Below, piece after piece: positions 6,560 through 46,864 of a stretch of DNA of 64,000 nt; the stretch's first letter is position 1, and each line of letters begins with the position of its first letter. The notes below the pieces were generated by a model. It saw only the letters and a list, made by a program, of their open reading frames with translations. It was not told the DNA's origin and did not search any database. Source of the DNA: an uncultured Lachnospiraceae bacterium (GTDB taxonomy: Bacteria > Bacillota > Clostridia > Lachnospirales > Lachnospiraceae). The translations under genes were made by a program, and so were the position numbers. The stretch spans positions 1,999-65,998 of the forward strand of contig CAZDRM010000001.1 of the NCBI GenBank assembly GCA_964507745.1, written 5' to 3'.

Positions 6560-6791
6560 TTACCGTTTTCTTATAATCTTGTTTATACTTCTCAATGGCT
6601 TCGTTAATTTCCAAGACCTACTTTGATATATTGAATCCACTTCTGCCTGAAGCCCTTGCTTCTCTTCTTGAAGCGTATGCTGTATCCTTCCTGCTTCCTC
6701 TGTTATTTTTTCAATTTCTAAGAGTAATTTATTTCGTTCAGACTCCAACTGCTTTATTTTATTTTCCGCTTCAGCATATATACGTTTTTTT
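6560..6791 (-). CDS. Coiled-coil plus SxSWxxTxPLR tail; probably the frameshifted C-terminus of 6754..8415
   Basis: Heptad-rich segment ending YQSRSWKLTKPLRSI; joins the upstream frame by a -1 shift at A7 (6785-6791). Confidence 0.7.
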
Positions 6792-8415
6792 CTGCCAATA
6801 AATTCTCTGTCTCCAACTGAAGTTTCTCTTTTTCCGTCTGATAACACTGCTCCATAAAACCTACAATCCTGTTCTCGTCAAAATTGAACCGCCAGAGACC
6901 TTTTATTTCTATTTGCAGTACCTTTCCCGGCTCAAATTTCAGCGAATAACTTGGATTGGGATTCTGACATACGGAATACATATCTTCTTCAGCCGTAACA
7001 TATTCACAAACTAAATTATCCTGTGAATAAATAACTGTTCCCTCTTCTGTTGTAATGTAAAGTTCTATATCTTTTATTCCAAAAAAACAATTAGTACAGG
7101 GTTTCCAACGATATTGGTATTGCGGGAATTGATATTCGCCGGGAATAACATACACTGCCGAAAAAATACCATCAATTATAATTTCTTCCGCGCCTATAGA
7201 TGTCAAGCAGATATTATTATCCCATATCTCCAAAATACTTAGGCATACCGGTGGGCGAACTTGAAGCAGCTTTGTATTCAATCCATAAATCAAATTACTG
7301 TCAATATTCTCCAACATTTCGGCATTTTCCTGTTTCCTGCCCAGAAGAGCATCAATCATACTCTTTAATTCTACAAACGTATCCGGGACATAGAAATTCA
7401 AATCATTCTCTTCTGCCAGTTTGCCAAATTGTTGAAAATAGTCCTCTACATTCCAGTCAATCGGTTTGATATAACGTTTGTATATGTGCCATAAAAATAT
7501 GCTAACATAATTTTTATCCTCAAACATAATAAGGGGAGCCGTAAGCGAAGTACTTTCCCCCGAAAGACAGATTATTTTATGGTTGCTTTTCTTGTAAAAG
7601 TTAACAAAATAAATTGCTTCCCAAGGACTATCCTGTGAAGTCATAATTTTTGAATTCACATCATCATATTTCCCAGAAAACCCCCTCTCCATGGGATGCG
7701 GTTTAATTATCATACGTTCCTCTCCGCATATGGCCGCTACCTTTTGCAACAAATATTTTTCTACTACCCCTGTAGTTCTGGAATATAATGTAAAATACTG
7801 ATCAAAATAAATTATTTCCGCTTCTTCACTTTCTTCTATTGCAAATACTCTACGCACTTCATTCTGAAGCTGCTCCCTATATGCGTCGTCACGGAGAGTT
7901 TCTACAAGTTCAATCCTGTGAATATCTATATTAGACGGAAGATGATACAATCGCGGCTCATAACACCAACCTTCCAGATTAACCGTTTCAACGTCAATTC
8001 CCACATACAATTCGCCCGGATTCTGCTTCTGCCACTTCAAAAAATCATTAAAAACCCTCACTCCTTCATCAATAATTTTTATCTGTGCTGAAACATCAAA
8101 TGCTTTTTGGTATAAAACCCTGGCAAATCTATTCAACAATGAAAAAATATATACTTCATCATTTTTGTCCAAGCAATATTCTTCGGAAATCTTTACCAAC
8201 TCTTCTTCATTCCGGAAAGCTTCCTTAATGATATGAACATGATCCCAAATCCCCAATGCTTCCGCCCTTTCTGCACAATCTGACGATTTGGAAGAATTAT
8301 TCGAAACAAGCAGGAATGACTCAACTTCTCCCGAAGGACGATAATATATTCTTAACATAAAATATGCCGTTAATATATTCTTTTGAGAATCACAAAAAAA
8401 ATAAAGTCTCTTCAC
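6754..8415 (-). CDS. Sialyltransferase/ulosonate-transferase-like GT-B protein, interrupted at an A7 run
   Basis: IIDEG (D/E-D/E-G), YFDQ and IKPHP (HP) motifs; GTG start at 8415 after AGGAG; lies directly upstream of the cytidylyltransferase. Confidence 0.65.
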   Translation of the reverse strand: MKRLYFFCDSQKNILTAYFMLRIYYRPSGEVESFLLVSNNSSKSSDCAERAEALGIWDHVHIIKEAFRNEEELVKISEEYCLDKNDEVYIFSLLNRFARVLYQKAFDVSAQIKIIDEGVRVFNDFLKWQKQNPGELYVGIDVETVNLEGWCYEPRLYHLPSNIDIHRIELVETLRDDAYREQLQNEVRRVFAIEESEEAEIIYFDQYFTLYSRTTGVVEKYLLQKVAAICGEERMIIKPHPMERGFSGKYDDVNSKIMTSQDSPWEAIYFVNFYKKSNHKIICLSGESTSLTAPLIMFEDKNYVSIFLWHIYKRYIKPIDWNVEDYFQQFGKLAEENDLNFYVPDTFVELKSMIDALLGRKQENAEMLENIDSNLIYGLNTKLLQVRPPVCLSILEIWDNNICLTSIGAEEIIIDGIFSAVYVIPGEYQFPQYQYRWKPCTNCFFGIKDIELYITTEEGTVIYSQDNLVCEYVTAEEDMYSVCQNPNPSYSLKFEPGKVLQIEIKGLWRFNFDENRIVGFMEQCYQTEKEKLQLETENLLAEKNVYMLKRKIK

Positions 8416-8480
8416 TCTTTGTTCTCCTTTGGTATGTTTGTCATTATTGTACCCCATTGACATGGTAATTATCAAGGCTA

Positions 8481-8521
8481 AATGAACACTTTTAACGCAG
8501 TCTGCTTCAAAAGTGTTCATT
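8481..8521. terminator. Intergenic stem-loop (possible terminator or processing site)
   Basis: 13-bp stem aatgaacactttt / aaaagtgttcatt with inner gcag/ctgc pairing; weak U-tract. Confidence 0.45.
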
Positions 8522-9483: not shown

Positions 9484-9580
9484 AATATACTAATTCTCCC
9501 GCTTTCATTTTTGTTATTTTAAGAATGAATAACGTCCATTATCCCGAAATAAACCATTGTAAAAAATATTACTAATATTA

Positions 9581-9609
9581 ATAATATTTCTTTATGAGTA
9601 ACTTGTCAA
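9581..9609 (-). promoter_or_regulatory. Sigma-70/SigA-type promoter for the methyltransferase-to-uxs block
   Basis: TTGACA-17 bp-TATTAT on the minus strand. Confidence 0.6.
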
Positions 9610-9660
9610 TAAAGCACTACTTTTAACATACCGAGATGCTGTTAACCTTTTATCCGGAAC

Positions 9661-9701
9661 AGAAAAAAGAACCTCATCCAAACATATGCGGTTCTTTTTC
9701 T
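9661..9701. terminator. Intrinsic terminator after the CotH/VTC cassette
   Basis: Inverted repeat agaaaaaagaacc / ggttctttttct. Confidence 0.6.
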
Positions 9702-9730
9702 ATTTTTAATATTTTAAATTATTTTATACT

Positions 9731-9918
9731 CTAATTTATCATCCCATGTAAAAGAATCTTCTCTACTGTCATCTCTCCCATATCATTGTAGAAAGTCCTG
9801 GCTTCCCAGTTATTAGAGCCTTCCAAAATACCAAATTCGATTTTTTTGCAATTCTTTCCTTCTTCTTTGATCACTTCGCTTTTTATAAATAAAATATCAT
9901 GCAAACTTGCTCGGTTTT
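9731..9918 (-). pseudogene. 3' remnant paralogous to the C-terminus of 14331..14747
   Basis: Manual translation EGSNNWEARTFYNDMGEMTVEKILL matches EGTNSWEIRTFYNGVGEMQIERIVI; no N-terminal part or convincing start. Confidence 0.7.
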
Positions 9919-9926
9919 CTTAGACA

Positions 9927-10919
9927 TTAATCCCACCAGCATTCCAATGCAGCAGGCGTTTCATAATCATTTGGATATATATCCAACCCACTTATTTCTA
10001 TAATTTCTTCATCAACAGAACCATTATATATTATGCCAAACTCTACAGATGTAGCTAATGACGAAAAAGAAATGGTGTACGTTATCTTATCAGATTCAAT
10101 ATCAGCCTCTTCTCTAATTACTTTAACATCTGAATTTTCGACGTTAATATATATATTGTCATCTGTCAGTTTATCAAAGTTCTGTCCATGAACCACAATA
10201 GTATAATTCCCTTTTTCCATGGTGGTGTATGGGCCAAACTGAACATATCCGCCATGTAATTTCATAGGCTCATTTCCCGCATCAGGATCTGTTGTTGCCA
10301 AAGATGTCGAGCTAAATGATCGATATGGGACTATACCATCTTGCACATATGCTATAAAATCATCATATGAACTTGACCTTTCAAAAATAAATATCGGCTC
10401 TATATCTAATTTCTCCCTTAATCCTTCCGCCAAACCATCTGTTACTATACAAAATTCTCCACAACCATACAAAAAATCTCTTCCTAATTTTTCTATACTT
10501 CCAGGAATATATATGTACTCCAATGCTGCACAGTTCAAAACTGCTCCATTTCTCACGCAACCCACATTATCTCCCAGCCTTAGAGTTTCCAAGTATTTAT
10601 AACCGTTAATACAGTTATATCCTATCTCCGTTATTTCATTACCAATAATCAGATTTACAACATCAGACGACAACAATCCATTTGCCGCCAGCAAAGCGTT
10701 CAGGTCAATGTTTTCCAGTTTTCCCTCTCCTCCAATATAAATTACATCATTTTCTCTTTCCTCAATATATAAACTTTCATTTTCCAAAGAAACAACTGTA
10801 TCAGTTTCATCTCCTATCATGTTTTCTGTCACATATCCCGCTAAACATATAATTACCAGAAGAATCCCTAAAATACCTATAAATATTCTTTTGTCGCTTT
10901 CTCTTGTCATGTCAATCAA
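9927..10919 (-). CDS. Membrane-anchored protein with BspA/LRR_5-like repeats and a C-terminal beta-sandwich-like domain
   Basis: N-terminal TM; IGNEITEIG, LGDNVGCV, IPGSIEKLG repeats; QFGPYTTMEKGNY. Confidence 0.65.
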   Translation of the reverse strand: MIDMTRESDKRIFIGILGILLVIICLAGYVTENMIGDETDTVVSLENESLYIEERENDVIYIGGEGKLENIDLNALLAANGLLSSDVVNLIIGNEITEIGYNCINGYKYLETLRLGDNVGCVRNGAVLNCAALEYIYIPGSIEKLGRDFLYGCGEFCIVTDGLAEGLREKLDIEPIFIFERSSSYDDFIAYVQDGIVPYRSFSSTSLATTDPDAGNEPMKLHGGYVQFGPYTTMEKGNYTIVVHGQNFDKLTDDNIYINVENSDVKVIREEADIESDKITYTISFSSLATSVEFGIIYNGSVDEEIIEISGLDIYPNDYETPAALECWWD

Positions 10920-11586
10920 CGACTCCCTCCTGTATCAAAAGAGACACATCATGAAAATTACCAAGTGCCTTTATTTCCTTGATCAGACCGCTTTGCTCTT
11001 TAAGTCCCCGAATCTCAATAATCAAGTTTACCTCTTCATTATGAATGCTTTCCGTTCGGATGTTCCAATATTTTGTGTTTGCATTCAATATGTCTTTCAA
11101 ATCGTTTTCGTCATATGGATAACTTCCATCTAAGACAAGTATCTTGTTGCGTGGCAATCCCGGTATTTCATCCGTTAATAAAACCACGATACCTGTAATA
11201 AAAGTAAGTGCCACTGCAATATAATACAAACCTGCCCCGGAGATTATCCCCACTGATATTGCCCAGAACAGAAATACCAAATCTAACGGATTTTTAATTG
11301 CCGTACGGAATCTGACTATAGAAAGAGCGCCAACCATTCCCAAAGACACAACTATACTTGACTGAATCGTAAGAATTACAGCTGTTGTAATTACCGCCAG
11401 TGCAATCAGTGATACAGCAAATTCCTTCGAGAAAAAGTACTTTCTTGCCTTAAAATAGTAAACTGCGCAGATAACTGCAGATATTATTACACAGACCAAC
11501 ATTGATATTACTGCATATTGAAAAGTAATGTCCGTGTTTGCATAGGAACTCAAAAAACCCTTCTTAAAAATATCACTAAATGTCAT
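10912..11586 (-). CDS. DUF4956-family membrane protein
   Basis: SLGMVGALSIVRFRTAIKNP signature, several TM helices, small soluble C-terminal domain. Confidence 0.9.
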   Translation of the reverse strand: MTFSDIFKKGFLSSYANTDITFQYAVISMLVCVIISAVICAVYYFKARKYFFSKEFAVSLIALAVITTAVILTIQSSIVVSLGMVGALSIVRFRTAIKNPLDLVFLFWAISVGIISGAGLYYIAVALTFITGIVVLLTDEIPGLPRNKILVLDGSYPYDENDLKDILNANTKYWNIRTESIHNEEVNLIIEIRGLKEQSGLIKEIKALGNFHDVSLLIQEGVVD

Positions 11587-12285
11587 TTATAATAGTCTCC
11601 CTTCCAAAGCTTTACAACCAAGATAAAATTTTGAAAATGCGCTTTGCTGCATATGCCCATTTTCAATCAGTTGATATATGACATCCGGCAGAAAATCATC
11701 ATATTTTACTTCCAGCACATGATACCCAGTAGGAAGTACAGAAACTCTCGGTATTTGTTTATCGAATATATTCAACCATTTCCTGGACGCAGAGATATTG
11801 CGGTCAAATGTAACACGAACATTTCCTAAAGAATATACATATGGCTTCCTGACATATTCCCCAAGCAAAGTTGGTTTCAACAAACAACTATTTCTTGCCA
11901 GAATCCATTCGTCAAGAAGATAATTTCTGCCCATACACTCTAAAAGCTTTTCCCCCCTGAGCATCTTCATGCATGTATCATAATCCAGAATATACCCCTG
12001 CTTTCCCGTCATATCTCTTATCTTCATCTTTTTTTCAAGAGTTATTCTCTTTTCAGAACAGTTATATATCCTAATTCGAAACTTTTCCCTTGGAGCAACC
12101 CCGTTTTCATTTTCATAGAAACAGCTATGTCGGTAATCATCAAAATATACACTTCTGATAACATACTCCCCTGTATCTCCTGCATAAGGATCCGGCCTCA
12201 TAAGGTTCTGAAGTCTCTTCTCAACAAGCTTCAATTCTGTATCTCCACATACATACTTTATTTCATGCCTGTATTTCTCATTCAC
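11587..12285 (-). CDS. VTC (polyphosphate polymerase-like, CYTH/TTM fold) domain protein
   Basis: RHEIKY, SVYFDD, KFRIRIY, LEKK, RVTFDRNI, VLEVKY, FSKF. Confidence 0.9.
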   Translation of the reverse strand: MNEKYRHEIKYVCGDTELKLVEKRLQNLMRPDPYAGDTGEYVIRSVYFDDYRHSCFYENENGVAPREKFRIRIYNCSEKRITLEKKMKIRDMTGKQGYILDYDTCMKMLRGEKLLECMGRNYLLDEWILARNSCLLKPTLLGEYVRKPYVYSLGNVRVTFDRNISASRKWLNIFDKQIPRVSVLPTGYHVLEVKYDDFLPDVIYQLIENGHMQQSAFSKFYLGCKALEGRLL

Positions 12286-13973
12286 TGCCCTTTTCTCCCA
12301 TAAGTATCCTTTATGTATTCATATCTCAAAGCAAAAAATTCCCTAACCTCTTCACATCCACTGTAAAATTGGTTAATGCTCTTGTTTTCCCCGTAAAATC
12401 GTTCATACTCATTTTGCATTGGCATGGCCATATCTGCCTCAAATTCATCAATTAAAGGGTTGACCCTTTCAGGATTAAAATTATTGTCTGCCAAATAAAC
12501 CAAGCGTTCCTCAAGAGCAGTTTCAAATCCTTCATTATCAAGGAGGCTTGCGAAAACCGGATCATTATGCATAGCCCAAGATATACCGTCCCATTCCACT
12601 TCTGTTTTAGCAAGGCTTAAGTTTACATCATACAGAATCCATCTCCATCTGCCATCAGAGTATCCGCCTGGAGAAATGGTTTTGGTCCTCCATAAAGCAG
12701 CATTAGTACTAGGCCAGTCTATATTTGCAATATAAATCTCTGTTGCATAATAATCAATATAACTATCCATATCTATCATCTGCAAAACAATTTCATAATT
12801 ATCTGAATCTGCCATATCATTATCTGCTATATACTCAGTCATTGCAGTGTATAAATCCCTATCCGTGCTATTTCCCAACTCAATCGCACCTCGTGATTTA
12901 ATCATAACAACATCATTACCAATCACGTCATAATTTTTTTCAAAATACATTTTAGAGTATTTCTCGTTTAAGAAATATGTCCCCCAGTATTCCCCATTCA
13001 GAAATAACTCATATGGAATATAACTGCGGGTAGAAAACGCCAAATCCGACGTAAGCCGGTTAACCAGATAATCCTTCATTTTTACCTGAGAATCTTGGGC
13101 TCCGGCAAATAAATTTAGGCTGTCCACATCATAACCAAATCCCAGTTTTACCCCATCCAATTCAGATCGGTCATATGCATCAGTTTCATAAATATTTAAA
13201 TTTCTTGGCAGCCATCCCCTGCTTCCACCACCTTGTATAGAAATCTCATACGTTCCGGACAAAATAAGTTCCTGTTCTAAATTCCAAAAAGCAATATCCG
13301 CCGCCCTTTTCCACGAATCTCCGCGTTGCCGATAATTTGCCTCTGCCCAAGTTGCCCAAGTTGTCCAATTATCAAATCGATCATAGGTTTGTAACTCTAA
13401 AAAATTATCAAATGCTTTTCCGGCAACATATATTCCCGTTTCATAATCAAATAAATTAACCGGATCCGTCACGATGGAAATAACATTTATATTATCATAT
13501 CTATCCTTTTCCTCAAATCCAACAAAATATACTCCGGTAATAATATCACTGCAATTTCCTTTTTCGTCAATGCAAACGGCTCTGACCACATTGGCTTTGT
13601 CAACTAATGCAATAGGCACAGAATATACGTTGTCCTCTTTGACCAACCCCATTTCTTTTAGTCTTTCATCAAGGAATAATGAAACATCAGTAATTTTACT
13701 ATATACATTGTCATTCAAACTTGCATCACTAATCAGTATCGGTCCTGTATAGACCAGCGAATTTTCGTCCGGGTCACTTGAGTCCAAAGTATAATAAATC
13801 GACCCTTCAAAACCATTTATTTCCAAGTAAAAATCGTCCTCATAAAATCCTGATTCTTTTGAAAACTCAATTTCTCGTTCATTGGTAAAATCTACACACG
13901 CCACAACAAACAATAAAATGAGCGCTCCTATACCCATCAGACATTTTATGATTCTTATTTTTTCATAATTCAT
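12282..13973 (-). CDS. Membrane-anchored CotH-family atypical kinase with an Fn3-associated domain
   Basis: N-terminal TM, IYYTLDSSDP, LFLNGEYWGTYFLNEK, NIDWPSTN, DGRWRWILYD. Confidence 0.88.
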   Translation of the reverse strand: MNYEKIRIIKCLMGIGALILLFVVACVDFTNEREIEFSKESGFYEDDFYLEINGFEGSIYYTLDSSDPDENSLVYTGPILISDASLNDNVYSKITDVSLFLDERLKEMGLVKEDNVYSVPIALVDKANVVRAVCIDEKGNCSDIITGVYFVGFEEKDRYDNINVISIVTDPVNLFDYETGIYVAGKAFDNFLELQTYDRFDNWTTWATWAEANYRQRGDSWKRAADIAFWNLEQELILSGTYEISIQGGGSRGWLPRNLNIYETDAYDRSELDGVKLGFGYDVDSLNLFAGAQDSQVKMKDYLVNRLTSDLAFSTRSYIPYELFLNGEYWGTYFLNEKYSKMYFEKNYDVIGNDVVMIKSRGAIELGNSTDRDLYTAMTEYIADNDMADSDNYEIVLQMIDMDSYIDYYATEIYIANIDWPSTNAALWRTKTISPGGYSDGRWRWILYDVNLSLAKTEVEWDGISWAMHNDPVFASLLDNEGFETALEERLVYLADNNFNPERVNPLIDEFEADMAMPMQNEYERFYGENKSINQFYSGCEEVREFFALRYEYIKDTYGRKGQ

Positions 13974-14032
13974 CTGTCTTTATCCTCAACATATAATACC
14001 TAAATATATCCGCAAGGCACAATCCCCTTTTA

Positions 14033-14061
14033 CTTGTATCACTTTTCCTATTCAATGTCAA
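14033..14061 (-). promoter_or_regulatory. Possible promoter of the CotH-VTC-DUF4956 operon
   Basis: TTGACA-17 bp-TACAAG with upstream TG. Confidence 0.4.
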
Positions 14062-14184
14062 CAATTTCTTTATTCATACAAATTTCAAGAAATATGAAAG
14101 ATAAATATAAACTTATAATATGAGGGATTAATAATTTATACACTCTATACCATGTATATTTTGCACAAATTTTTATAGTTTCCC

Positions 14185-14328
14185 CTATACAGCATTCCGC
14201 ACAAAACTCCGGATATTATTACAAAAAGTAAGCGCAAAGCCCCTGCCTAATGCAACATTCAAATGCCCTAGCACAATCATGCATATTGCTATTCTTTTCA
14301 AGGCATTAAATGCACCATTTCTCTTCAT
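14185..14328 (-). pseudogene. Truncated acyltransferase-3 (OafA-like) N-terminus
   Basis: MKRNGAFNALKRIAICMIVLGH resembles the AT3 first helix (K/R..A....H); stops after 47 codons. Confidence 0.6.
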
Positions 14329-14330
14329 AA

Positions 14331-20621: not shown

Positions 20622-22814
20622 TTACTCTACCTTTTCTATTACCATGGATTTAAATTCTATTCCCGGAACATTTACATACATTCTAAGTTCACATCGGTCA
20701 TCGGCATCATCAAGTACTACTCCTTCTAATTTAACCTCTGTATTTCCAGCATAAAACTCTGCTGATGCAATAACGTTCAATGATAAACACATATCTACCA
20801 TCCCCAGCGCTTTACCACTCTCTATGCTACCGTCATAGTCATACTGAAAGGTTACATTATAAACTCCTTTTTCAATACGCTTTCCCGGTCCATATACTAA
20901 ATAGCCTGATGCTGTAGAAACATAGTTATCTTTACTTTCTGCCACGGCAGATACTAAAATATCCTCCTGTCCTGTCAACTCAAGTTCCTCTCCTGCTTCA
21001 TCAGGAAAGAAAGCATCAGGATATGTGATCAGATCATGAAACAATTCCGGATAATCCCCATATATTTCATCAAAATGCTGCTGTAATTTTTCATAATCTT
21101 CCCTGTCATAATGAGAATTTCTTATATAAACATTAGCTATAACTCCGTTATCCAGTTTAAACCTGTCCACAAAATCATAATGCCTTCCCAAATAAGAATC
21201 CGAATCCAAGATTAGTTCTGTAAAATAAGTAATGATCTGTTGCGTTTCCTCTGGAGTATGAATCTGTTTTGGCTCTCCGACAATTACTACATCTGTCCCA
21301 AACAATTCCACAGGAAATCCATCTCTTAAATCTACATTTTTTGTATCATAGAGATGTGGAACAGGATTATTATTAAGAGGCAGTCTCGCCTTCTTTAATG
21401 TATCAGAATTTAAAATTTGCGAACTGGATACAACATACGCCCACTTTCCATTTGACTCATTTGCAAGACTATTAACACAATCTATCAGGCTGTTAACATC
21501 TTCTAAGTCATTCCTCACTTTTGCCTCATAATACCTCGTTGAAAAAAGATTACAAATATTCACTCCGTTGAAAACCGGTACGTAACATATTATCATGCTG
21601 GACATTCCCCAAGCTATCCCCACTGTTGTCAGAATAATGCCTTCTTTCTTCTCCAACCGTTCGGCCAGACCGAATAATCCGATGCATGCCATTATCATTA
21701 CCTGAATCACAATCAGGTAATATTGATGCCAATTCATCTGCAATTCCCGCCATAATAAAAACGTGGCAAGTATTACATTAATGAAATACATGGCAACAAC
21801 GGCAACCAACCCCTTATAAAATCTGCACATAAGAGGTGCCAGAACAATTGTCATAAATAGTATTCCCCAGCCAAACACAATCAATATTCTTCCAAATTTA
21901 TCAGCATATGAAACATCATATGCCTTATAAGCATAATAGAAATTATTAAATACTGAACGCATTAAAAACCGATTGAAGGCGGTCAGCAGAACCGCAAGAG
22001 ATATTCCGCCTATTACAAACATATCTATTACATAATTTATGAATATTTTCTTTCTTTCCTCTTTATTATTTGCAAATTGATATATTGCAACAAATAGGAC
22101 GGAAAAAACGTAGCCTACGACCCAATATGCAAAATGGCGCCTGAATAAAACCAGAAGCAACAGTCCAATGGCAATCAGCACACACCTTGAAACATCTATT
22201 CTGCAAAAATCAAAATCTAATGACAACATTAATACACCTGATATTAGTAATAATATCGGTGGGTCCATAAATCCATCCAGTAAAACATAATAAATAATAG
22301 GCGTTGCCCCAATAAATAACAATATATTCCAGAATTTTGACCTGTTAATCTGAAATTTCCTCAGTATTTTATATGTCAGCAGGCTTATCAAAAACAATGC
22401 CGGACACATATAAAAAAACTGATTAATTACCACATACCTCGCAAAGGAATTTCCCAAAAGTCTTAATGGCAGTGCAATTAAAATCGGCATAAAACGATTA
22501 TAATCCTGTTCATTAATTGAATGATAAATCCCTTTTAATGCTCCTAACGGTGTTTCAAACAAGTCGTGGGATACACTGATTGCCGTTGTCCACTCTCTCC
22601 CATAATCCCAATAGTATATGAAATGATTTTGTTTTATCAATATACAAATTATGCCTGTAACGCCAAATAGAATAAAAAAAGAAAAAATCCAATCTATTCT
22701 TGTCAGTGCTTTAATCTCAGATAATGCATTTCCTTTTTTTAATGCGCCCCAAATATATAAATAGAATAAACAGGGTGCTAAACAGGCAATCATAAAACCT
22801 CCGGCAACATTCAT
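20622..22814 (-). CDS. Polytopic membrane protein, probable GT-C fold glycosyltransferase with extracellular C-terminal domain
   Basis: About 12 TMs, YYWD in the first outer loop, GFMD, C-terminal YLVYGP..IEKGVY; abuts gtrB. Confidence 0.6.
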   Translation of the reverse strand: MNVAGGFMIACLAPCLFYLYIWGALKKGNALSEIKALTRIDWIFSFFILFGVTGIICILIKQNHFIYYWDYGREWTTAISVSHDLFETPLGALKGIYHSINEQDYNRFMPILIALPLRLLGNSFARYVVINQFFYMCPALFLISLLTYKILRKFQINRSKFWNILLFIGATPIIYYVLLDGFMDPPILLLISGVLMLSLDFDFCRIDVSRCVLIAIGLLLLVLFRRHFAYWVVGYVFSVLFVAIYQFANNKEERKKIFINYVIDMFVIGGISLAVLLTAFNRFLMRSVFNNFYYAYKAYDVSYADKFGRILIVFGWGILFMTIVLAPLMCRFYKGLVAVVAMYFINVILATFLLWRELQMNWHQYYLIVIQVMIMACIGLFGLAERLEKKEGIILTTVGIAWGMSSMIICYVPVFNGVNICNLFSTRYYEAKVRNDLEDVNSLIDCVNSLANESNGKWAYVVSSSQILNSDTLKKARLPLNNNPVPHLYDTKNVDLRDGFPVELFGTDVVIVGEPKQIHTPEETQQIITYFTELILDSDSYLGRHYDFVDRFKLDNGVIANVYIRNSHYDREDYEKLQQHFDEIYGDYPELFHDLITYPDAFFPDEAGEELELTGQEDILVSAVAESKDNYVSTASGYLVYGPGKRIEKGVYNVTFQYDYDGSIESGKALGMVDMCLSLNVIASAEFYAGNTEVKLEGVVLDDADDRCELRMYVNVPGIEFKSMVIEKVE

Positions 22815-29667: not shown

Positions 29668-30942
29668 CTATCTGTCAAGGGTATTTCTTTCACTCCAATC
29701 CCAATCATGTTCAATATAAGTAATCGCTCCTCCCGGCAACGTGGGCAATATATCAAATTCTGCGGCATGTCTAAAAACATCTATCGGCTCAGTGGTATGC
29801 TCCTTCAATATAAAATCAATAAAATATTTGTGTTGCATTAATAATACCTTTTTCAATCTGAACAATACTTTGCCGTCTTTACTGATATTTACCGCTTCCC
29901 CCGGTTCAAAATTAGTATTGGTGGCATAACAATAAATATAATCATATTCACGAATCACATCAATAGCAAAATACGCATCCTTAACAGGTTCATTGACTTT
30001 ATAAGTTGCTTCTATCAAAATATCATCGCCCATATTAAACTGTTGTTGCTCTTCATAATTACTATTTAATACCCTTACTTCCTGAAAAACGACCTTTTGA
30101 TTTCCTTCTCTTCCGCTTTCTTTTTGGCAATTCTCTTCTACTTCTTCAGTCGGTTTCTCCTCTTGCTCTTGTTTTGAGTTAGGGGTAACGCTGCTCTTAT
30201 TTTTCTCTGCCCCCATATATTCCAGATATTTTCTATGAACCTTTCTTGTGTCCCCATCTGCCTTTATCAAGCCTTTTTCAATCCAAACAGTTCTTTCACA
30301 AATAGCTTCTATCTGACCTAATGAATGGGAAACAATAACAATCGTTACCCCACTATCTTTAATTTCTTTCATTTTTTTAAAACACTTTTCCTGAAAATTT
30401 GTATCTCCGACTGCCAAGATCTCATCAATCAACAAAATCTCCGCATCTACATTAATTGCAACGGAAAAAGCCAGACGCATATACATTCCGGAGGAATAGG
30501 TGCGAACGGGATTATCAATATAATCTCCTAATTCGGAAAATTCTATGATATCATTAACCCGCTTATCAATTTCTTTTTTGGATAACCCAAAAATAGATGC
30601 ATTGATATAAATATTTTCTCTTCCGCTCATATCAGGATGAAAGCCGGCACCTAATTCAATCAGACTGGATACCCGGCCCTTCATCTCAATGCTTCCGCTG
30701 TCAGGATACATGATTTTCGTTAAAAGTTTTAAAGTAGTACTCTTCCCACACCCGTTTCTTCCAATCAAACCGATGGCTTCGCCTTTTTTAACCTCAAAGC
30801 TGATTCCCTTCAATACCTGACGGTTTTCATAACGTCTTCTGTTACCATGAATCACAAAATCTTTCACATTATTACTTCGGTCAAAATATACCTTAAAGGC
30901 TTTTGTTATATCCTTTACTTCTATAGCATTTCCTTCTTTCAT
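29668..30942 (-). CDS. wzt: Polysaccharide ABC exporter ATPase with C-terminal Wzt_C domain
   Basis: Walker A GRNGCGKST, YSSGMYMRLAF, DEILAVGD, about 170-aa C-terminal extension. Confidence 0.93.
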   Translation of the reverse strand: MKEGNAIEVKDITKAFKVYFDRSNNVKDFVIHGNRRRYENRQVLKGISFEVKKGEAIGLIGRNGCGKSTTLKLLTKIMYPDSGSIEMKGRVSSLIELGAGFHPDMSGRENIYINASIFGLSKKEIDKRVNDIIEFSELGDYIDNPVRTYSSGMYMRLAFSVAINVDAEILLIDEILAVGDTNFQEKCFKKMKEIKDSGVTIVIVSHSLGQIEAICERTVWIEKGLIKADGDTRKVHRKYLEYMGAEKNKSSVTPNSKQEQEEKPTEEVEENCQKESGREGNQKVVFQEVRVLNSNYEEQQQFNMGDDILIEATYKVNEPVKDAYFAIDVIREYDYIYCYATNTNFEPGEAVNISKDGKVLFRLKKVLLMQHKYFIDFILKEHTTEPIDVFRHAAEFDILPTLPGGAITYIEHDWDWSERNTLDR

Positions 30943-32302: not shown

Positions 32303-35300
32303 TTATATCAGGCTTCGATACAACTTATATATTTTATCCCCCGTGGCATACCATGAAGTTTCTTTCACATACCGGTCAACAGCTTCCGTATAGGTATCTG
32401 CGGCGGTCTTATCACTCATCAGGATTTTGACTGCATCCGCTATCAGTTCCCCTTCCGCTGACTCTATCTGATAAGTGCATTCTTTAAATTCGTCAAAAAT
32501 CGGCTGTCTGGTGGTAATGATTGGCCGCTTAGCCGCCATGCAGAATCTGATTGCCCCGCTTGCCGACTCTTTTGTGGGCTTATAGGGCATTACCAACATA
32601 TCACATGCCTGAAGGCGCCCCATGGATTCCTCATTAGGCAGGAAATCGGTAATAAATTTGACATTATCCTGCACGCCTAAACGCTCCGTCTCTGCCACAC
32701 ACTCATTATAATATTCTGTAGAATCAACGCTCTCATGAAGCGCGCAGACCGGCATATATAGTATATGCGGAAATTCTTCTTTTAAAATTGCCACCGCCTG
32801 TATGACTTCTTTAATGCCTTTGTGGGGCAGGAAAAACCCATAACTGCCTATTACCGGACTCGCAGATATTTTCTGCTGTTTCTGTACGAATTTTGCGCTT
32901 ATTCCGGAATATACAATCTGTCCATGATTAATTACATGAATGATTTTTTCATTTATTCCGTAACCGCATAGCAGCTCCTTATCTTTTTCCTGATGCACAA
33001 TCAATGCGGCGCACAGATTAAGCTGCTTTCTAATAGAACGCAGACTGACAGACTGCCCGTTGATTTCGGCGTCTTCCGTTTTATGGAAGGTAATTACTAT
33101 TTTCTTTTCTTGGTGCAGCTGTTTTATTGCCGCCGCCAAATCAGCCAATATGAAAAAACCGTAATTAAACTGGAAATGAACGATGTCTGAGGAATCATTT
33201 CTTACCATTCTTATCAGCTCAGCTATATCTCCCTTTTTAATATTCCCCCATACTCTCTTTGCCACAAAAGGCTCGTCCCTTGCAATTGTCCTGGAAGTAT
33301 AGTCAGGGTATATCCGGTACTCCACATTTTGCATAGTTGCTTCTACTTCCATTTTGGTGTATTCCGCAACTCCGCATTTACTGTTCCATGTGGTAACCAT
33401 GGAAACCCTGGGTCGCACCTGCTTTTCCTTAACCTCTTCTATAAAGTCCAGCCATCTCCCTGCAACGGCTTCCCATGTAAATCCGGTGCTGATCAGATCA
33501 TATGCTTTTTGTATCTTATCATCCAGTTCAAGCTTTTCCCTCTCAAAAGCAAAATCCCTGAACCGGGAAACCAATTCCTCTTTTTTGGGCTCAAACCACA
33601 TGGAAATCTTGCCCTTTCCGTTTTGGGTAACATGAGTATCCGCTGGCGTCTGTTCAAAGCCTACTAAAAGAGCATTCTCTTCATTGCAAAAATCAGCCAT
33701 GCCGCTGTTTGCGCTGACAATGACGGGAATCCTTGCCAGCATGGCTTCCGCCACCGGAAGCCCGAATCCCTCTCCTCTTGCCGTCTGCACATAGCAGTCC
33801 ACAGCCTTATAGAGCCTGTTCAGTTCCTCATCCGACAGGTCGCAGTTTATCCACTCAACCTCAGGTCCCTCCGGATAACGGCTGCGCAGTTCCTTTAAAA
33901 TTTCTTCCACGTTATTATGGGGATTGGAAAAAGTCTTTAATACAAGACATACATCATCAGCCTTTGTAAAGGCTTCAAAATAACCTTCCAAAAGCACGTC
34001 CACGCCTTTTCTGGGAAATGCCGAACTGATATGCAGAAATTTTGTTCCCTTCCTGGTCTTAAGAGGATAGGGCTTTAACTGTTCAAAATTCCGAACCAGC
34101 TGTACTCCTATTCCCATGGTCTTTACAGGTATTTTTATTCCGTTTTCTATGAGAATATCGGTAACGTAATCCGTCATTGTGCCGATTCCGCTTAAATACT
34201 TATTGAAATTATCGATATAATTGCCGGGAATAACGCTTTCTTCCCAGCCGAACGCCTGAAAATTGAGACCGCCCGTCACATCCGCCACTCTGGGCGGGTA
34301 CATATTCCTGATGGTAATATCCGGATAAGTAACTCCTTTGGATTTTTCCCATAACCGGCGGGCATGGGGCTTATCCTTCAAATCCTCCTCTTTAGGAGTA
34401 TAATCCCCCGGTCCCTCGGTACAATAAATAGAGATATTATCCTCTTTATCAATATCGTCTATGGCTTCCATCAGCTTCCGGTTCACAATTGCCAGACTGT
34501 AGGAGGATTCAAATGGTCCCTGAAGCTGTATGTTACGTTTTCTCTTTCCGCTCAGAATATTATCAATGATTTTGAAGAAAATTTCTTCCGTATTCATCTC
34601 TTCCAGCTGTTGGATGCGTACCATCTGCCGTTCCACAATTTTCTGGTACAAATCGGAATCCGTTAACACCTCATTGCACAAGGCTCCGATATAGGCATAA
34701 TTTTTTTCATGAACCAGAATACCTGCGCCGTTCATGGTTTCCGGAATAGCGGAAGAACAATAGGATATTACCGGGACGCCCATTTTCATAGCCTCCAGCA
34801 AAGGAACTCCAAAGCCCTCGTGCTCGCTCATGCACAAAAATAAATCTGCCATTTCATAATAAGCCTTCAATTCTTGTTCGCTTACCTTGCCTGTAAAAAA
34901 CACCTTGCTTTCCACGGCATAGTCCCGGCAGATTCCCTTTAATTCATTTATATAGCCTTCCATGCTGTCATCGCCCACAATAAACAGCCTGCTGTCCTCA
35001 TTATAATAGTTGTTGTAAACGGCAAAAGCATGGAGAATATCCTTCTGGCATTTATTAGGGACCACCCTGCCTACAAATATAATATTTTTATAGTTTTCAT
35101 GGTCTTTTGCAACAGAAGCTTCTGACTGAACATGATCAAAGCGGTCCAAAGAAATCTGTATGGGCATAACGTCCACATTCTCATATCCCATTCCCAGCAG
35201 TTCTTTTCTGTTGTAATTGGAGTCGGCAATGGCGTAATCCACATACCTCCTATATTCTTTAGCCTGCCACAGGCCCTGACGAATTGCTTTTTTAAGCCCT

Positions 35301-35599
35301 TCATCTTCAAAGAAATGTTCCGGCGTTATATTATGATAAATCAACGCCTTTTTATCGGGAAGCCCGATAATTTTATCAAAGCAGTTCATTCCCATAGAAT
35401 GATGAACAAAAAGAATGCCATCCTTATTTCCTTTATATTTCTGAATGGGTTTTATTTTGTCCGAAAGCCTTTCATCTATATATTCTGCATATATTTCTGA
35501 TTCATACCCTCTGCTGATGAGCAGTTCCCGGAGTTCAAGCATCATATTGGTTATGGCGTCGCCCACTGTGGTTCCTGAATGAAATTGATTAATCTGCAT
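32303..35599 (-). CDS. Multidomain glycosyltransferase with three GT4 modules
   Basis: GDAITN/HNITP/EHEGFGVPLLEAM; FPRKG/GEGFGLPVAEAM; WNSKCGVAEY/GFFLPHKG/ESASGA. Confidence 0.9.
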   Translation of the reverse strand: MQINQFHSGTTVGDAITNMMLELRELLISRGYESEIYAEYIDERLSDKIKPIQKYKGNKDGILFVHHSMGMNCFDKIIGLPDKKALIYHNITPEHFFEDEGLKKAIRQGLWQAKEYRRYVDYAIADSNYNRKELLGMGYENVDVMPIQISLDRFDHVQSEASVAKDHENYKNIIFVGRVVPNKCQKDILHAFAVYNNYYNEDSRLFIVGDDSMEGYINELKGICRDYAVESKVFFTGKVSEQELKAYYEMADLFLCMSEHEGFGVPLLEAMKMGVPVISYCSSAIPETMNGAGILVHEKNYAYIGALCNEVLTDSDLYQKIVERQMVRIQQLEEMNTEEIFFKIIDNILSGKRKRNIQLQGPFESSYSLAIVNRKLMEAIDDIDKEDNISIYCTEGPGDYTPKEEDLKDKPHARRLWEKSKGVTYPDITIRNMYPPRVADVTGGLNFQAFGWEESVIPGNYIDNFNKYLSGIGTMTDYVTDILIENGIKIPVKTMGIGVQLVRNFEQLKPYPLKTRKGTKFLHISSAFPRKGVDVLLEGYFEAFTKADDVCLVLKTFSNPHNNVEEILKELRSRYPEGPEVEWINCDLSDEELNRLYKAVDCYVQTARGEGFGLPVAEAMLARIPVIVSANSGMADFCNEENALLVGFEQTPADTHVTQNGKGKISMWFEPKKEELVSRFRDFAFEREKLELDDKIQKAYDLISTGFTWEAVAGRWLDFIEEVKEKQVRPRVSMVTTWNSKCGVAEYTKMEVEATMQNVEYRIYPDYTSRTIARDEPFVAKRVWGNIKKGDIAELIRMVRNDSSDIVHFQFNYGFFILADLAAAIKQLHQEKKIVITFHKTEDAEINGQSVSLRSIRKQLNLCAALIVHQEKDKELLCGYGINEKIIHVINHGQIVYSGISAKFVQKQQKISASPVIGSYGFFLPHKGIKEVIQAVAILKEEFPHILYMPVCALHESVDSTEYYNECVAETERLGVQDNVKFITDFLPNEESMGRLQACDMLVMPYKPTKESASGAIRFCMAAKRPIITTRQPIFDEFKECTYQIESAEGELIADAVKILMSDKTAADTYTEAVDRYVKETSWYATGDKIYKLYRSLI

Positions 35600-36037: not shown

Positions 36038-36067
36038 TTCATTACAGAACCTCCGCAAAATGTTTTT
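36038..36067. repeat. Right copy of duplicated wzm/wzt junction (true wzm 3' end)
   Basis: Matches 30938-30967 at an offset of exactly 5100 bp. Confidence 0.8.
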
Positions 36068-36818
36068 TCAGCTTACCAAATGAAAACCAACCGATAAAAA
36101 GCATAACTATTCCCATAATCGTTCCCAGAATAAACGTATGGAGCTCCGGCGCCTGCTTGTAGTATAAAACATCTCTGTAAGCCGCAATGATAGGCGTCAT
36201 GGGATTTAAATAGAAAACTCCCCGGAATTTTTCCGGCACCATATCCACAGAGTACATGACCGGGCTTAAAAACTGCCACGCCATTAAAACAATATTCAGT
36301 AGAAACTGCATATCCCTGAAATAAACCGTTATGCCGGAAAACAAAAGGGTCAGTCCAAAAGCTAAAAGAGTTTCCTGTAATATGATAACCGGCAGATACC
36401 ACCATACGGCAAGATTGATCCCTTTTCCCGCTATGATCAAAACCGCTATGACAACAATAAATGACAGAAGCATATTGATCAGCTGGCTGAGCACATGAGA
36501 AACAGGAAGCACTTCTCTGGGAAAATATATTTTATTTACCAGACTCTGCTGACTGATAATGCAGCCGGCGCCGCCTCCCACGGAAGTGGAAAAAAATGTC
36601 CACGGAACCAGCGCCACAAACAGGAAAAGATAGTAATCCTCGATTCCCGCCCGCATAATAACCGAAAACACAAAGGTATATACGATCAGCTGCAAAAGCG
36701 GGTTTAAAAAGGTCCATAAAAATCCTAACACGGACCCTTTATACCTGCCTCTTAAATCTCTCTTTACCAGACTGGAAATCATCGTACGATAATCCCAGAT
36801 TTCCTTGAACAATTTCAT
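36042..36818 (-). CDS. wzm: Polysaccharide ABC exporter permease
   Basis: RDLRGRYKGSVLGFLWTFLNPL, KIYFPRE, RD, LNPM, HFAEVL. Confidence 0.93.
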   Translation of the reverse strand: MKLFKEIWDYRTMISSLVKRDLRGRYKGSVLGFLWTFLNPLLQLIVYTFVFSVIMRAGIEDYYLFLFVALVPWTFFSTSVGGGAGCIISQQSLVNKIYFPREVLPVSHVLSQLINMLLSFIVVIAVLIIAGKGINLAVWWYLPVIILQETLLAFGLTLLFSGITVYFRDMQFLLNIVLMAWQFLSPVMYSVDMVPEKFRGVFYLNPMTPIIAAYRDVLYYKQAPELHTFILGTIMGIVMLFIGWFSFGKLKKHFAEVL

Positions 36819-36821
36819 GTT

Positions 36822-38771
36822 TTATAAACCATACTCTTTCATTATATTACGAAATTCCTGAGAATTGGAAAATCCCTGCAGCACCTGATCCCTTGTCATG
36901 GCGCCGGAATCCAGTTTATTTAACCAATCATAATATCCCTGTATATCGTATTCCCTGCCTAAGAATGTTCTGTAAAGTACCTTAATATACTCCGCATTGC
37001 TTAAGTTTTTATTCAAAAACTCCTGAGAGTGGAAAAAGCCTATAGTAGCTGCATCCGTTACAGTCCATTTTTTGTCAAGGATACGGTCGCACCAATCGTT
37101 TAGGCCGCTGATGTCATATCCTCTTCCCAAGGCTTTTGTATACATACGGGCTACAAAGCTTGTAAGACCGGGATTGCGGTCGCGTCCCTGAACCTTTTTG
37201 ACAGTTCCTCTTGTGATTCCGTAGAAGGCACATAAATCATTAAACTCTTTCGATTCCGCAAAGCCCTTAAAGATACCTTCCCTGGTAACCCCTGACTGCA
37301 TGCATCCCAGCCAATAAGCTTTGCCGCCGGAGTCCGCATTACGATCCAGCATAACCCTATACAACAAATCAACAAACTCACTGTCGCTTAAATTGCGGTT
37401 CCTCAATTCCGGGCTGAAGAAAAATCCATAAGCCACATCTGCGCCGCCTCTTCTTTTGCTGACCAGAGAATTCTTCCAGTCAATCAGTCCTTCATCATCA
37501 GGCTGCCGTCCAAAACAGAGTGTGTATAATCTGGTTACAAAAGATGTGACCAGATCGTCATTGGTTGCCTGATCGTCGGTTCCTCCCAGATATCCCGCCG
37601 CGTCAAAGAATTCAACATTATATGAAATAATTACATCTTTCCCTTTCTTATCTTTGATTCCGCTGATAGCTACACTATAAACGCCGGAAAGATTTCCTGT
37701 TCCGCAGGTTGCTGTACCGGGCTTAAAAATAATGGCGTTGCTCTCCCCTGCCGCCTCAAAATTAACATTGAAATAAGGCTTTGTTATATCAAAGCGGTCT
37801 GTCGTGTTATCTGCCGCCGTAAACTTCTGAACTTTTCCGTTGGGTAAAGTAAGTGAAACCTTTACATTGTTTATATTCATTTTGCTGACATCAAACTTGT
37901 CCGGATTCAAAGTAACCGACCAGGGCGTATCTCCCTGACAGAATTCCTGAGGGAAGTTTCCTGATGCAGGCCATGAAATGAAATCATAGTCCGGCGGCAA
38001 TACTCCCTTGTCCTCAACATACATAACGGCATAAGCCATATTGCTCTTATTTGTAGCATATCCGAAACCGGTGGATCCCATCCTGGGATCTAAAATCCAT
38101 CTTCTATGCCCCACATTTCCCAGATTACCGGGCGCTTTATCTTCCATAAAGTTCTGGGTAAACCACGCAAGACTTCTCCATGACTCATAAGATCCGCTGG
38201 CAATATTGCTCTTCTGGGTGGCTGTTCTTCCCGCCACATAAAAATTATTATCCATGCCGGAGGGCTGAGAAGGATAATTGTCCAATGTATTATTTGCCGC
38301 TAATATTACCGCTCCCTGCTGAGCCTGAGAGGTATATACAGGATTATATCCTACGGAAGGCAGTCCGGCTATCATACGCATCATATTAACGCTTTCTACT
38401 GCTTTCTGTAAATGGATTGTTGACAACACCCCCGCCGAATAGGGCTTGGTTACAACCGGAGTGGTCTGGTAGAATGTATAATTCAGCCCATAGCTGTACA
38501 GATTCCTGTACTGACTGGCAATGGTAAATTTACTGGGCTTGGCCAGGGATAAGTCTCCACTGTAGGAATATACTTTCTCCTCTTCCATAACCACATCGTT
38601 TTCCGAAAGGCTGTTTTCAGAAACACCTGTAGGCGTTACTATCACATTTTCCCCGTTGGCCGCAATCATTTCTTTCGCGTTTTCCGGTTCGGATGCGGCC
38701 AGAACCGGTGTGGTAATGGATGTTCCCAGCAATATTGCTGCAAGCATACAGGAAACAAGTCTTTTTCTCAT
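36822..38771 (-). CDS. Secreted CAP-domain protein with C-terminal DUF4214-type repeats
   Basis: Signal peptide, VNMMRMIAGL, GHRRWIL; tail FVTRLY..CFGRQPD..G..W / S.EF. Confidence 0.85.
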   Translation of the reverse strand: MRKRLVSCMLAAILLGTSITTPVLAASEPENAKEMIAANGENVIVTPTGVSENSLSENDVVMEEEKVYSYSGDLSLAKPSKFTIASQYRNLYSYGLNYTFYQTTPVVTKPYSAGVLSTIHLQKAVESVNMMRMIAGLPSVGYNPVYTSQAQQGAVILAANNTLDNYPSQPSGMDNNFYVAGRTATQKSNIASGSYESWRSLAWFTQNFMEDKAPGNLGNVGHRRWILDPRMGSTGFGYATNKSNMAYAVMYVEDKGVLPPDYDFISWPASGNFPQEFCQGDTPWSVTLNPDKFDVSKMNINNVKVSLTLPNGKVQKFTAADNTTDRFDITKPYFNVNFEAAGESNAIIFKPGTATCGTGNLSGVYSVAISGIKDKKGKDVIISYNVEFFDAAGYLGGTDDQATNDDLVTSFVTRLYTLCFGRQPDDEGLIDWKNSLVSKRRGGADVAYGFFFSPELRNRNLSDSEFVDLLYRVMLDRNADSGGKAYWLGCMQSGVTREGIFKGFAESKEFNDLCAFYGITRGTVKKVQGRDRNPGLTSFVARMYTKALGRGYDISGLNDWCDRILDKKWTVTDAATIGFFHSQEFLNKNLSNAEYIKVLYRTFLGREYDIQGYYDWLNKLDSGAMTRDQVLQGFSNSQEFRNIMKEYGL

Positions 38772-38804
38772 GTCAACATTCCTCCATTCATTTTGATGAT
38801 TTGT

Positions 38805-40379: not shown

Positions 40380-40396
40380 GATACTCTTCTCCGCAT

Positions 40397-42415: not shown

Positions 42416-42467
42416 TCCTGCGTCCCCTCTCAAAAAGCAATTACCTCAACTATTATACTCCTTTTTA

Positions 42468-46822: not shown

Positions 46823-46864
46823 AATTTCCTCCTTTATCCGTAGCTGTTTTTGTGCCACACAGTA

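Follow-up and report, generated by a model that had tools for sequence, protein, structure and literature searches.

A CotH, VTC and DUF4956 gene triad in a Wzm/Wzt-type glycan locus of an uncultured Lachnospiraceae bacterium: a candidate copy of a widespread three-gene envelope module

Neighbouring genes encoding a CotH-family kinase, a VTC-domain protein and a DUF4956 protein were tabulated in 2010 in the NELoc-2 locus of Clostridium perfringens, where the DUF4956 protein was annotated as tubulin/FtsZ (PMC2879425), and were described by Whitfield et al. in 2020 as an accessory set of Gram-positive pel loci (PMC7112168). In 2025 the cotH, polyphosphate-polymerase-domain and DUF4956 genes of Streptococcus intermedius (SIR_1594/1593/1592) were deleted singly: the DUF4956 mutant produced more Pel, yet aggregated >50% less in sputum medium, the CotH mutant produced less Pel and aggregated less, and synteny of the module was reported as not found outside Pel loci (PMC12345266). 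Here we describe the same triad in a 64,000-nucleotide stretch from an uncultured Lachnospiraceae bacterium (contig CAZDRM010000001.1, positions 1,999 to 65,998; hereafter the window), a metagenome-assembled genome of 391 contigs, 89.7% complete. A sequence-only reading of the window had picked out the gene set, which is already in print (2010, 2020, 2025); what is new here is the non-Pel context, together with a second, diverged triad that this genome carries in a different glycan locus, and the 2025 statement that the synteny does not occur elsewhere than in Pel loci fails in our sample.

That the three genes form a single envelope module is almost certain. The triad at 13973..10912 would be a copy of a widespread, membrane-spanning three-gene module, accessory to an ABC-transporter-type wall-glycan locus. 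Together with a fourth gene, it forms the following cassette, whose genes were assigned from the list of open reading frames (ORFs) and from Pfam.

12282..13973, minus strand: CotH-family kinase, 563 aa
11587..12285, minus strand: VTC-domain protein, 232 aa
10912..11586, minus strand: DUF4956 membrane protein, 224 aa
9927..10919, minus strand: anchored leucine-rich repeat protein (LRR_5, BspA-type), 330 aa
13974..14330, no strand: gap upstream of the CotH gene, presumed regulatory region, 357 bp
9484..9926, no strand: gap downstream of the LRR gene, 443 bp

The four co-directional minus-strand ORFs fill the span 13973..9927 in the order CotH-VTC-DUF4956, then LRR, and the overlapping or abutting gene ends that had been noticed earlier were confirmed by the coordinates and by the reading of starts and stops. 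The VTC gene starts at a GTG overlapping the CotH TGA stop (GTGA), the ATG of the DUF4956 gene directly abuts the VTC TAA stop, and the LRR gene starts either at a TTG at 10919 (8-nt overlap with the DUF4956 stop) or at an in-frame ATG at 10910 (1 nt past that stop). Pfam recognized all four proteins (CotH, 8.9e-33; VTC, 7.7e-38; DUF4956, 9.5e-16; LRR_5, 2e-6), and an NCBIfam scan gave no name to any of them. The cassette had also been credited with its own promoter and terminator, and neither was recovered: a minus-strand consensus scan of 13974-14330 found no sigma-70-type promoter, and a scan 3' of 9927, covering the gap 9484..9926, found no terminator-like hairpin. The cassette is nevertheless set apart on both flanks, by a 357-bp gap upstream and a 443-bp one downstream. 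A promoter-like site inside the downstream gap (minus strand, 9609..9581) probably serves the next gene. In the upstream gap a short ORF (14180-14330) resembles by eye the N-terminus of an Acyl_transf_3 protein, and may be a rearrangement remnant at the cassette border.

The gene neighbourhoods of the three families were surveyed in 201 genomes sampled evenly across the phylum and in 14 control genomes, and all 39 VTC sites were inspected. VTC was present in 31 of the 201 genomes and DUF4956 in exactly the same 31; CotH was detected in 27, of which 24 also had VTC, and the three CotH-only genomes included the short spore-coat type of ~360 aa. Both VTC and DUF4956 were found in three controls from three other phyla (B. 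thetaiotaomicron, C. glutamicum and M. acetivorans), and CotH in those same three plus B. subtilis. CotH without VTC and DUF4956 was seen in B. subtilis and three Bacillota_A-type genomes. DUF4956 adjoined VTC at 36 of the 39 sites; the other three comprised two sites at contig ends and one with the genes split between contigs. CotH was adjacent at 22 sites, in every case co-directional and across small gaps only. The orders were V-D-C (10), C-V-D (7), C-D-V (3), D-C-V (1) and D-V-C (1), where the letters stand for VTC, DUF4956 and CotH. A shuffled order with linkage retained is a signature of selection for co-expression. This survey, which the sequence-only reading had proposed as a check, thus gave very strong linkage for VTC and DUF4956, and CotH adjacency at 22/39 sites. 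The VTC-DUF4956 pair is the invariant core of the module, and the conserved unit consists of three genes only (CotH, VTC and DUF4956), which very probably act as one functional unit of the envelope.

A second complete triad with the same gene order was found in the same genome on contig C9 (9183-12385, locus L008), followed by a nucleotidyltransferase-like gene, two GT2 genes, a Bac_transf initiating transferase and an LCP ligase. One triad thus lies in each of two wall-glycan loci. The two triads are old paralogues: identity between the window and C9 copies is 18% for CotH, 37% for VTC and 42% for DUF4956. The names attached to CotH homologues indicate Lachnospiraceae or Clostridia, and homologues 87% identical to the window CotH exist; in 17 congeners no homologue of it was found at E <= 1e-20, which argues that the module is a patchy accessory element. 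A third VTC gene of this genome (contig C322, 1265-1936, L003) adjoins a DUF6033 protein; C322 is a 2.1-kb contig that ends 180 bp downstream of the VTC gene, and partner genes would lie beyond view.

To describe the settings of the module, 184 neighbours lying within three genes (<=3) of it were counted at 37 other loci. OmpR-type response regulators and histidine kinases were the commonest (about 13 each), followed by glycosyltransferases of families GT4 (8) and GT2 (5), Pel-associated families (DUF3492, 5; PelG, 3; DUF2194, 3) and Cthe_2159 (5). An OmpR-type two-component system stood directly beside the pair in 12/39 loci. At 5/39 loci, in five genomes, a Cthe_2159 (PF14262) beta-helix protein of 515-809 aa with a lipoprotein signal occupied the place of CotH, directly following the DUF4956 gene in four loci and directly preceding the VTC gene in the fifth; all five have an adjacent OmpR-type two-component system and are located as follows.

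L009:7214-9283, Cthe_2159 locus
L010:6693-9122, Cthe_2159 locus
L011:11460-13799, Cthe_2159 locus
L012:916-2793, Cthe_2159 locus
L016:8436-9983, Cthe_2159 locus

At least three settings of the module can thus be told apart: linked to two-component systems, linked to Pel, and inside other glycan loci.

The LRR gene falls outside this conserved unit, although it had been counted as a member of the cassette. Its product has one N-terminal membrane segment, a predicted anchor in agreement with the earlier description, and a marginal LRR_5 match (PF13306) that just exceeds the cut-off (28.2 bits against 27.7) over a single stretch, residues 88-153. No BLAST match to it was obtained in 38 other module loci, and 40 relatives, including the 17 congeners, gave only weak repeat matches to larger proteins. 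A few other modules do have LRR proteins nearby, two of LRR_5 type and three of LRR_8 type. The window gene, though coupled in translation to that of DUF4956, is a passenger specific to its lineage, and its protein is possibly a substrate or partner.

The VTC protein (PF09359, 130.8 bits against a cut-off of 23) comprises the tunnel (TTM) domain only, 232 aa with no hydrophobic segment; it is predicted to be soluble and cytoplasmic, as had been supposed. Single-sequence searches of VTC and CotH against solved structures gave no match. A profile of 36 diverse bacterial VTC sequences (A2) matched Vtc4 (3g3q) with E 4.4e-11, aligning R6, K10, R70, R72, K86 and K95 with Vtc4 R196, K200, R264, R266, K281 and K294, and Y144, R146, R157, E192, K194, S218 and K219 with Y359, R361, R373, E426, K428, S457 and K458. 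All thirteen residues are invariant in the 36 sequences, and the protein is predicted to carry a full Vtc4-like polymerase site. In hydrolytic tunnel enzymes a second, water-activating metal is held by an acidic patch formed by ExExK in strand 1 and a later ExE (PMC4641920), whereas in Vtc4 basic residues take the place of those glutamates and lead the growing chain away, K458 being the catalytic lysine (Martinez et al., PMC4641920). The bacterial motifs are R6-x-E8-x-K10 and E192-x-K194 (RxExK and ExK), and K219 never varies. Of the three glutamates of metal site 2, two are thus basic, the Vtc4 condition, while E8 is kept without exception. The pattern speaks more for a polymerase than for a hydrolase without settling it, and we rate the polymerase as the somewhat better supported of the two. 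Adjacent Ppx/GppA and PPK1 genes were seen on contig C53 (10479-12895) of the same genome, in which PPK2 was searched for and not found; given this ppx-ppk1 pair, VTC would be a dedicated enzyme rather than the bulk polyphosphate synthase.

The model of the DUF4956 protein (PF16316; pLDDT 84.7) has five helices (22-47, 54-74, 78-90, 100-117 and 121-138), consistent with the membrane protein predicted earlier, and a C-terminal beta-alpha-beta-beta-alpha-beta region (148-218) that forms an ACT-like domain. Helix 1 is followed by a basic loop, which by the positive-inside rule suggests an N-out, C-in orientation; the invariant residues R92-F93-R94 (RFR) and D102 would then be on the cytoplasmic face, with the C-terminal domain inside the cell. 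Alignment A5 defined the invariant signature G-x-x-S-x-x-RFR. Both DUF4956 paralogues matched MgtC (PF02308) below the family threshold (E 0.17 for the window protein and 0.083 for the other), and the C-terminal domain matched ACT folds including the MgtC C-domains 7qa5 (Z 9.1) and 2lqj (Z 8.7), with many other ACT folds scoring equally; these matches agree with the published account, in which DUF4956 combines an MgtC-like membrane domain with an ACT domain (PMC12345266). Foldseek and VIA-align searches with the model returned matches to the C-terminal domain only and none to the membrane part, so the latter was barely probed by fold comparison. The eukaryotic VTC pore is a PF02656 channel lined by basic residues of five TM1 helices (PMC9911596); DUF4956 gave no PF02656 match even at E up to 10. 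Some longer VTC relatives, on singleton contigs of ~2.3 kb, appear as VTC+DUF4956 and VTC+DUF4956+CotH proteins. These fusions were considered as a sign of physical contact and rejected, given that the domains are cut mid-fold, as in assembly chimeras or deletion products; the proteins lack the FSK motif, the first DUF4956 helix and the N-terminal half of CotH.

The CotH protein matched its family over profile positions 1-322 (PF08757, 114.6 bits against a cut-off of 23.8), and its N-terminal part matched Fn3_assoc and CHB_HEX_C_1. Its predicted build is an N-terminal helix (2-27), a beta-sandwich (~35-168) and a kinase domain (~220-560); the model (pLDDT 91.4) shows the Fn3_assoc/CHB_HEX_C_1-like sandwich followed by the kinase domain, a layout that places a glycan-enzyme-type accessory domain beside the kinase. 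The helix is preceded by basic residues, and an N-terminal hydrophobic anchor was common to 31/31 homologues examined, among which a possible lipobox cysteine varies. On this conservation the bulk of the protein, either signal-anchored or a lipoprotein, is predicted to lie outside the membrane, so that the outward-facing orientation first suggested for it stands as a prediction.

The CotH model superimposed on B. cereus CotH 5jd9 (Foldseek E 2.4e-11, TM-score 0.77 normalised to the target), and a profile of module-linked CotH proteins (A6) matched the same structure with E 3e-50; a profile restricted to close homologues missed it, and the broader one was required. D419 and N424 (D-x4-N) align with B. 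cereus D224/N229, and D449 with D247, corresponding to the catalytic-loop Asp and Asn and to the metal-binding Asp; the 23-residue spacing of D224/D247 equals that of B. subtilis D228/D251, the catalytic and metal-binding residues of that enzyme (PMC7821199). The catalytic core thus appears intact by alignment, and both catalytic aspartates are kept in 27/29 module-linked CotH proteins. Position 257, a candidate for the conserved Lys of the nucleotide-binding lobe, is Arg in the window protein and in other module-linked CotH proteins, and Lys in close homologues and in most homologues. The two proteins without the catalytic aspartates are the VTC-proximal copies of tandem CotH pairs (L027:10762-12498 and L028:10609-12324), whose distal copies keep both; each tandem looks like a pseudokinase-kinase pair.

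The surroundings of the cassette are a large co-directional, low-GC glycan locus, as indicated by family scans of the window proteins, which upheld the glycan-locus context proposed at the outset. The export components are listed below, both from Pfam.

29668-30942: Wzt with a C-terminal domain
36042-36818: Wzm

They are accompanied by GT2, GT4 and GT8 glycosyltransferases (Pfam), NDP-sugar dehydratases and epimerases, nucleotidyltransferases, two Acyl_transf_3 proteins and a TylF-like methyltransferase, and the locus is of the Wzm/Wzt ABC-transporter type. PelG, DUF3492 and PelA-like families had no match among the 38 window proteins scanned; these families were found at other module loci. 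GC content at 2000-32000 was 0.34-0.39, compared with 0.42-0.48 in the remaining window, a low value typical of variable, exchangeable surface-polysaccharide islands. Between the Wzm gene and further GT4 genes, five consecutive genes (36822-46858) encode exported proteins with different heads (CAP, GDSL lipase, S8 subtilase and two unknown) and, in each, 3-4 DUF4214 repeats at the end; by these repeats the proteins may be anchored to the glycan that the locus produces. A single chain of 1098 aa (32303-35599) contains three GT4-type glycosyltransferase modules, and two proteins of the glycan locus (6754-8520, 588 aa; 20622-22814, 730 aa) had no Pfam match even at E up to 10.

How the three proteins might work together was weighed against these data. 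In the mechanism proposed, VTC would dock on DUF4956 and build a phosphate chain from ATP, DUF4956 would convey either the chain or phosphoryl groups from it to the outer face, and CotH would then move phosphate onto the wall glycan or a surface protein. The broad form of this proposal, a cytoplasmic polymerase coupled via DUF4956 to an outward-facing phosphotransferase, is the single most likely story and still a tentative one; that DUF4956 is a conduit is likewise a possibility we hold with reserve. The strict form, in which CotH uses polyphosphate as its donor, we infer to be unlikely, and a prokaryotic polyphosphate synthase-translocase with an MgtC-like membrane part, feeding an ATP-independent CotH-fold enzyme that acts on surface targets, is at least as doubtful. 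From the sequence-only reading, which had proposed such a route, the layout across the membrane, the Vtc4-like site of VTC and the CotH core held up in sequences and models; the membership of the LRR protein and the promoter and terminator did not. The altered Pel level and aggregation of the S. intermedius CotH and DUF4956 mutants also count in favour of the proposal (PMC12345266). Several observations weigh against the proposed supply route. The acidic-patch glutamate E8 is kept by bacterial VTC, where Vtc4 has Thr198, and we know of no polyphosphate-using kinase of the CotH fold. DUF4956 resembles MgtC and is unrelated to the eukaryotic VTC channel; no conducting role is known for MgtC, which is a regulator. 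In DUF4956 no basic residues are invariant other than R92 and R94, which would sit at the membrane face, not along a pore, and the apparent VTC-DUF4956 fusions are truncated chimeras on short singleton contigs. Since Cthe_2159, which is not a kinase, replaces CotH at 5/39 loci, the pair is not solely a kinase supply. The S. intermedius VTC mutant had no reported change (PMC12345266), and a simple linear supply chain does not predict such a null deletion together with opposite Pel shifts in the DUF4956 and CotH mutants. Lastly, our literature search found no biochemistry on bacterial VTC, DUF4956 or exported CotH proteins, which agrees with the earlier remark that the bacterial VTC-DUF4956 pair has no assigned function.

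Two rival explanations are nearly as good. Polyphosphate might itself be the product, with VTC and DUF4956 externalising or wall-anchoring the chain as a surface polyanion, and with an interchangeable outer partner (CotH or Cthe_2159) that binds or trims it or attaches it to the glycan; we regard this as possible and somewhat doubtful. The polymerase-like VTC site fits such a role, as does an invariant VTC-DUF4956 core whose outer partner differs between sites (22 have CotH, 5 have Cthe_2159, and the rest no detected partner), but the complete phosphotransfer site of CotH in 27/29 module-linked copies speaks for catalysis rather than binding, and DUF4956 shows no sign of a pore. Extracellular polyphosphate made independently of PPK does exist in Gram-positive bacteria, having been described in the B. 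cereus group in a 2026 preprint, although its authors state that B. cereus, the organism studied, lacks a VTC homologue (PMC13484657). The triad could also be a regulatory or sensory module, a reading to which we give about the same modest credence: DUF4956 would be an MgtC-like regulator whose ACT-like domain senses a cytoplasmic ligand, VTC a DUF4956-bound tunnel phosphohydrolase or a sensor of triphosphate or polyphosphate, and the two would tune glycan synthesis or the outer partner. Nothing would then cross the membrane, and CotH would obtain its donor from elsewhere or act on its substrates before or during export.

The regulatory reading is consistent with the weak MgtC similarity of both DUF4956 paralogues, with the matches of the C-terminal domain to ACT and MgtC C-domains, and with the OmpR-type two-component systems beside the pair in 12/39 loci; one acidic-patch glutamate is kept in bacterial VTC, and the S. 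intermedius deletions (Pel raised by loss of DUF4956, lowered by loss of CotH, unaffected by loss of VTC) look more like the work of a regulator than of a supply chain (PMC12345266). It has to contend with the replacement of two of the three water-activating glutamates by basic residues and with the invariance of the Lys-458 equivalent, and it does not account for where an extracytoplasmic kinase would get its phosphoryl donor; a strict one-to-one pairing of VTC and DUF4956 together with outward-facing enzymes would also be unusual for a mere regulator. Finally, the cassette could be no functional unit at all, just four genes that happen to stand side by side in a mosaic glycan locus. The LRR gene does lack any relation to the conserved set, and the locus is a low-GC mosaic, but VTC and DUF4956 co-occur in 31/31 genomes and adjoin at 36/39 sites, CotH joins them co-directionally in five gene orders, and this genome holds two independent copies; for the three core genes these linkage data effectively refute a chance assembly, which we consider highly improbable.

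To our knowledge, bacteria have no ATP outside the cytoplasm, yet most CotH-family kinases are exported; PPK-independent extracellular polyphosphate has recently been described in Gram-positive bacteria (PMC13484657); and VTC is still treated by the field as a eukaryotic enzyme. If the module makes and exports phosphate chains, these three puzzles would be linked and a new envelope modification revealed, and if a CotH-fold enzyme used the chains at the surface, the module would offer a general answer to the problem of phosphoryl chemistry outside the cytoplasm in bacteria and archaea. Whatever its product, the module is not tied to Pel loci, one genome can hold two divergent copies, one per glycan locus, and the interchangeability of the outer partner narrows the range of possible mechanisms.

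Four described systems can be set beside the triad. The eukaryotic VTC complex (Vtc4/Vtc3/Vtc1; 3g3q, 7ytj, 8i6v; PMC9911596) shares the Pfam family of the tunnel domain, with all tunnel residues conserved, and likewise joins a polymerase-like soluble domain to a small multi-helix membrane protein with conserved arginines at its cytoplasmic face, the tie being a genetic one here. It differs in that bacterial VTC has no SPX domain, has Glu8 in the place of Vtc4 Thr198, and is a separate protein unfused to a membrane domain; in that the eukaryotic membrane part is a pentameric channel of three-helix PF02656 subunits, whereas DUF4956 has five helices and an ACT-like domain and is MgtC-like; and in that the destination would be the cell surface instead of the vacuole. 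MgtC/SapB proteins resemble DUF4956 in their five membrane helices followed by a cytoplasmic ACT-like domain, in weak Pfam similarity and in the matching fold of the C-domain, whereas DUF4956 matches their family only below threshold and has its own G-x-x-S-x-x-RFR signature, and MgtC has no linkage to VTC or CotH.

Bacillus CotH (5jd9, 5jda) shares with the window protein the fold, the catalytic-loop Asp-x4-Asn and the metal-binding Asp. It is ~360 aa long, works in the mother cell, where ATP is available, and has no linkage to VTC or DUF4956, in contrast to the window CotH, which is predicted to be membrane-anchored and outward-facing, and which has an extra N-terminal beta-sandwich and Arg at position 257. 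The accessory set of Pel loci has the same three families, contiguous and co-directional, with an exported CotH and an association with a surface polysaccharide. The window copy is distinguished from it by its gene order (CotH-VTC-DUF4956), by an LRR_5 protein as the fourth gene where the Pel-locus set has DUF4832, and by its setting, in which a Wzm/Wzt locus takes the place of pelDEADAFG, with the second copy lying beside Bac_transf and LCP genes.

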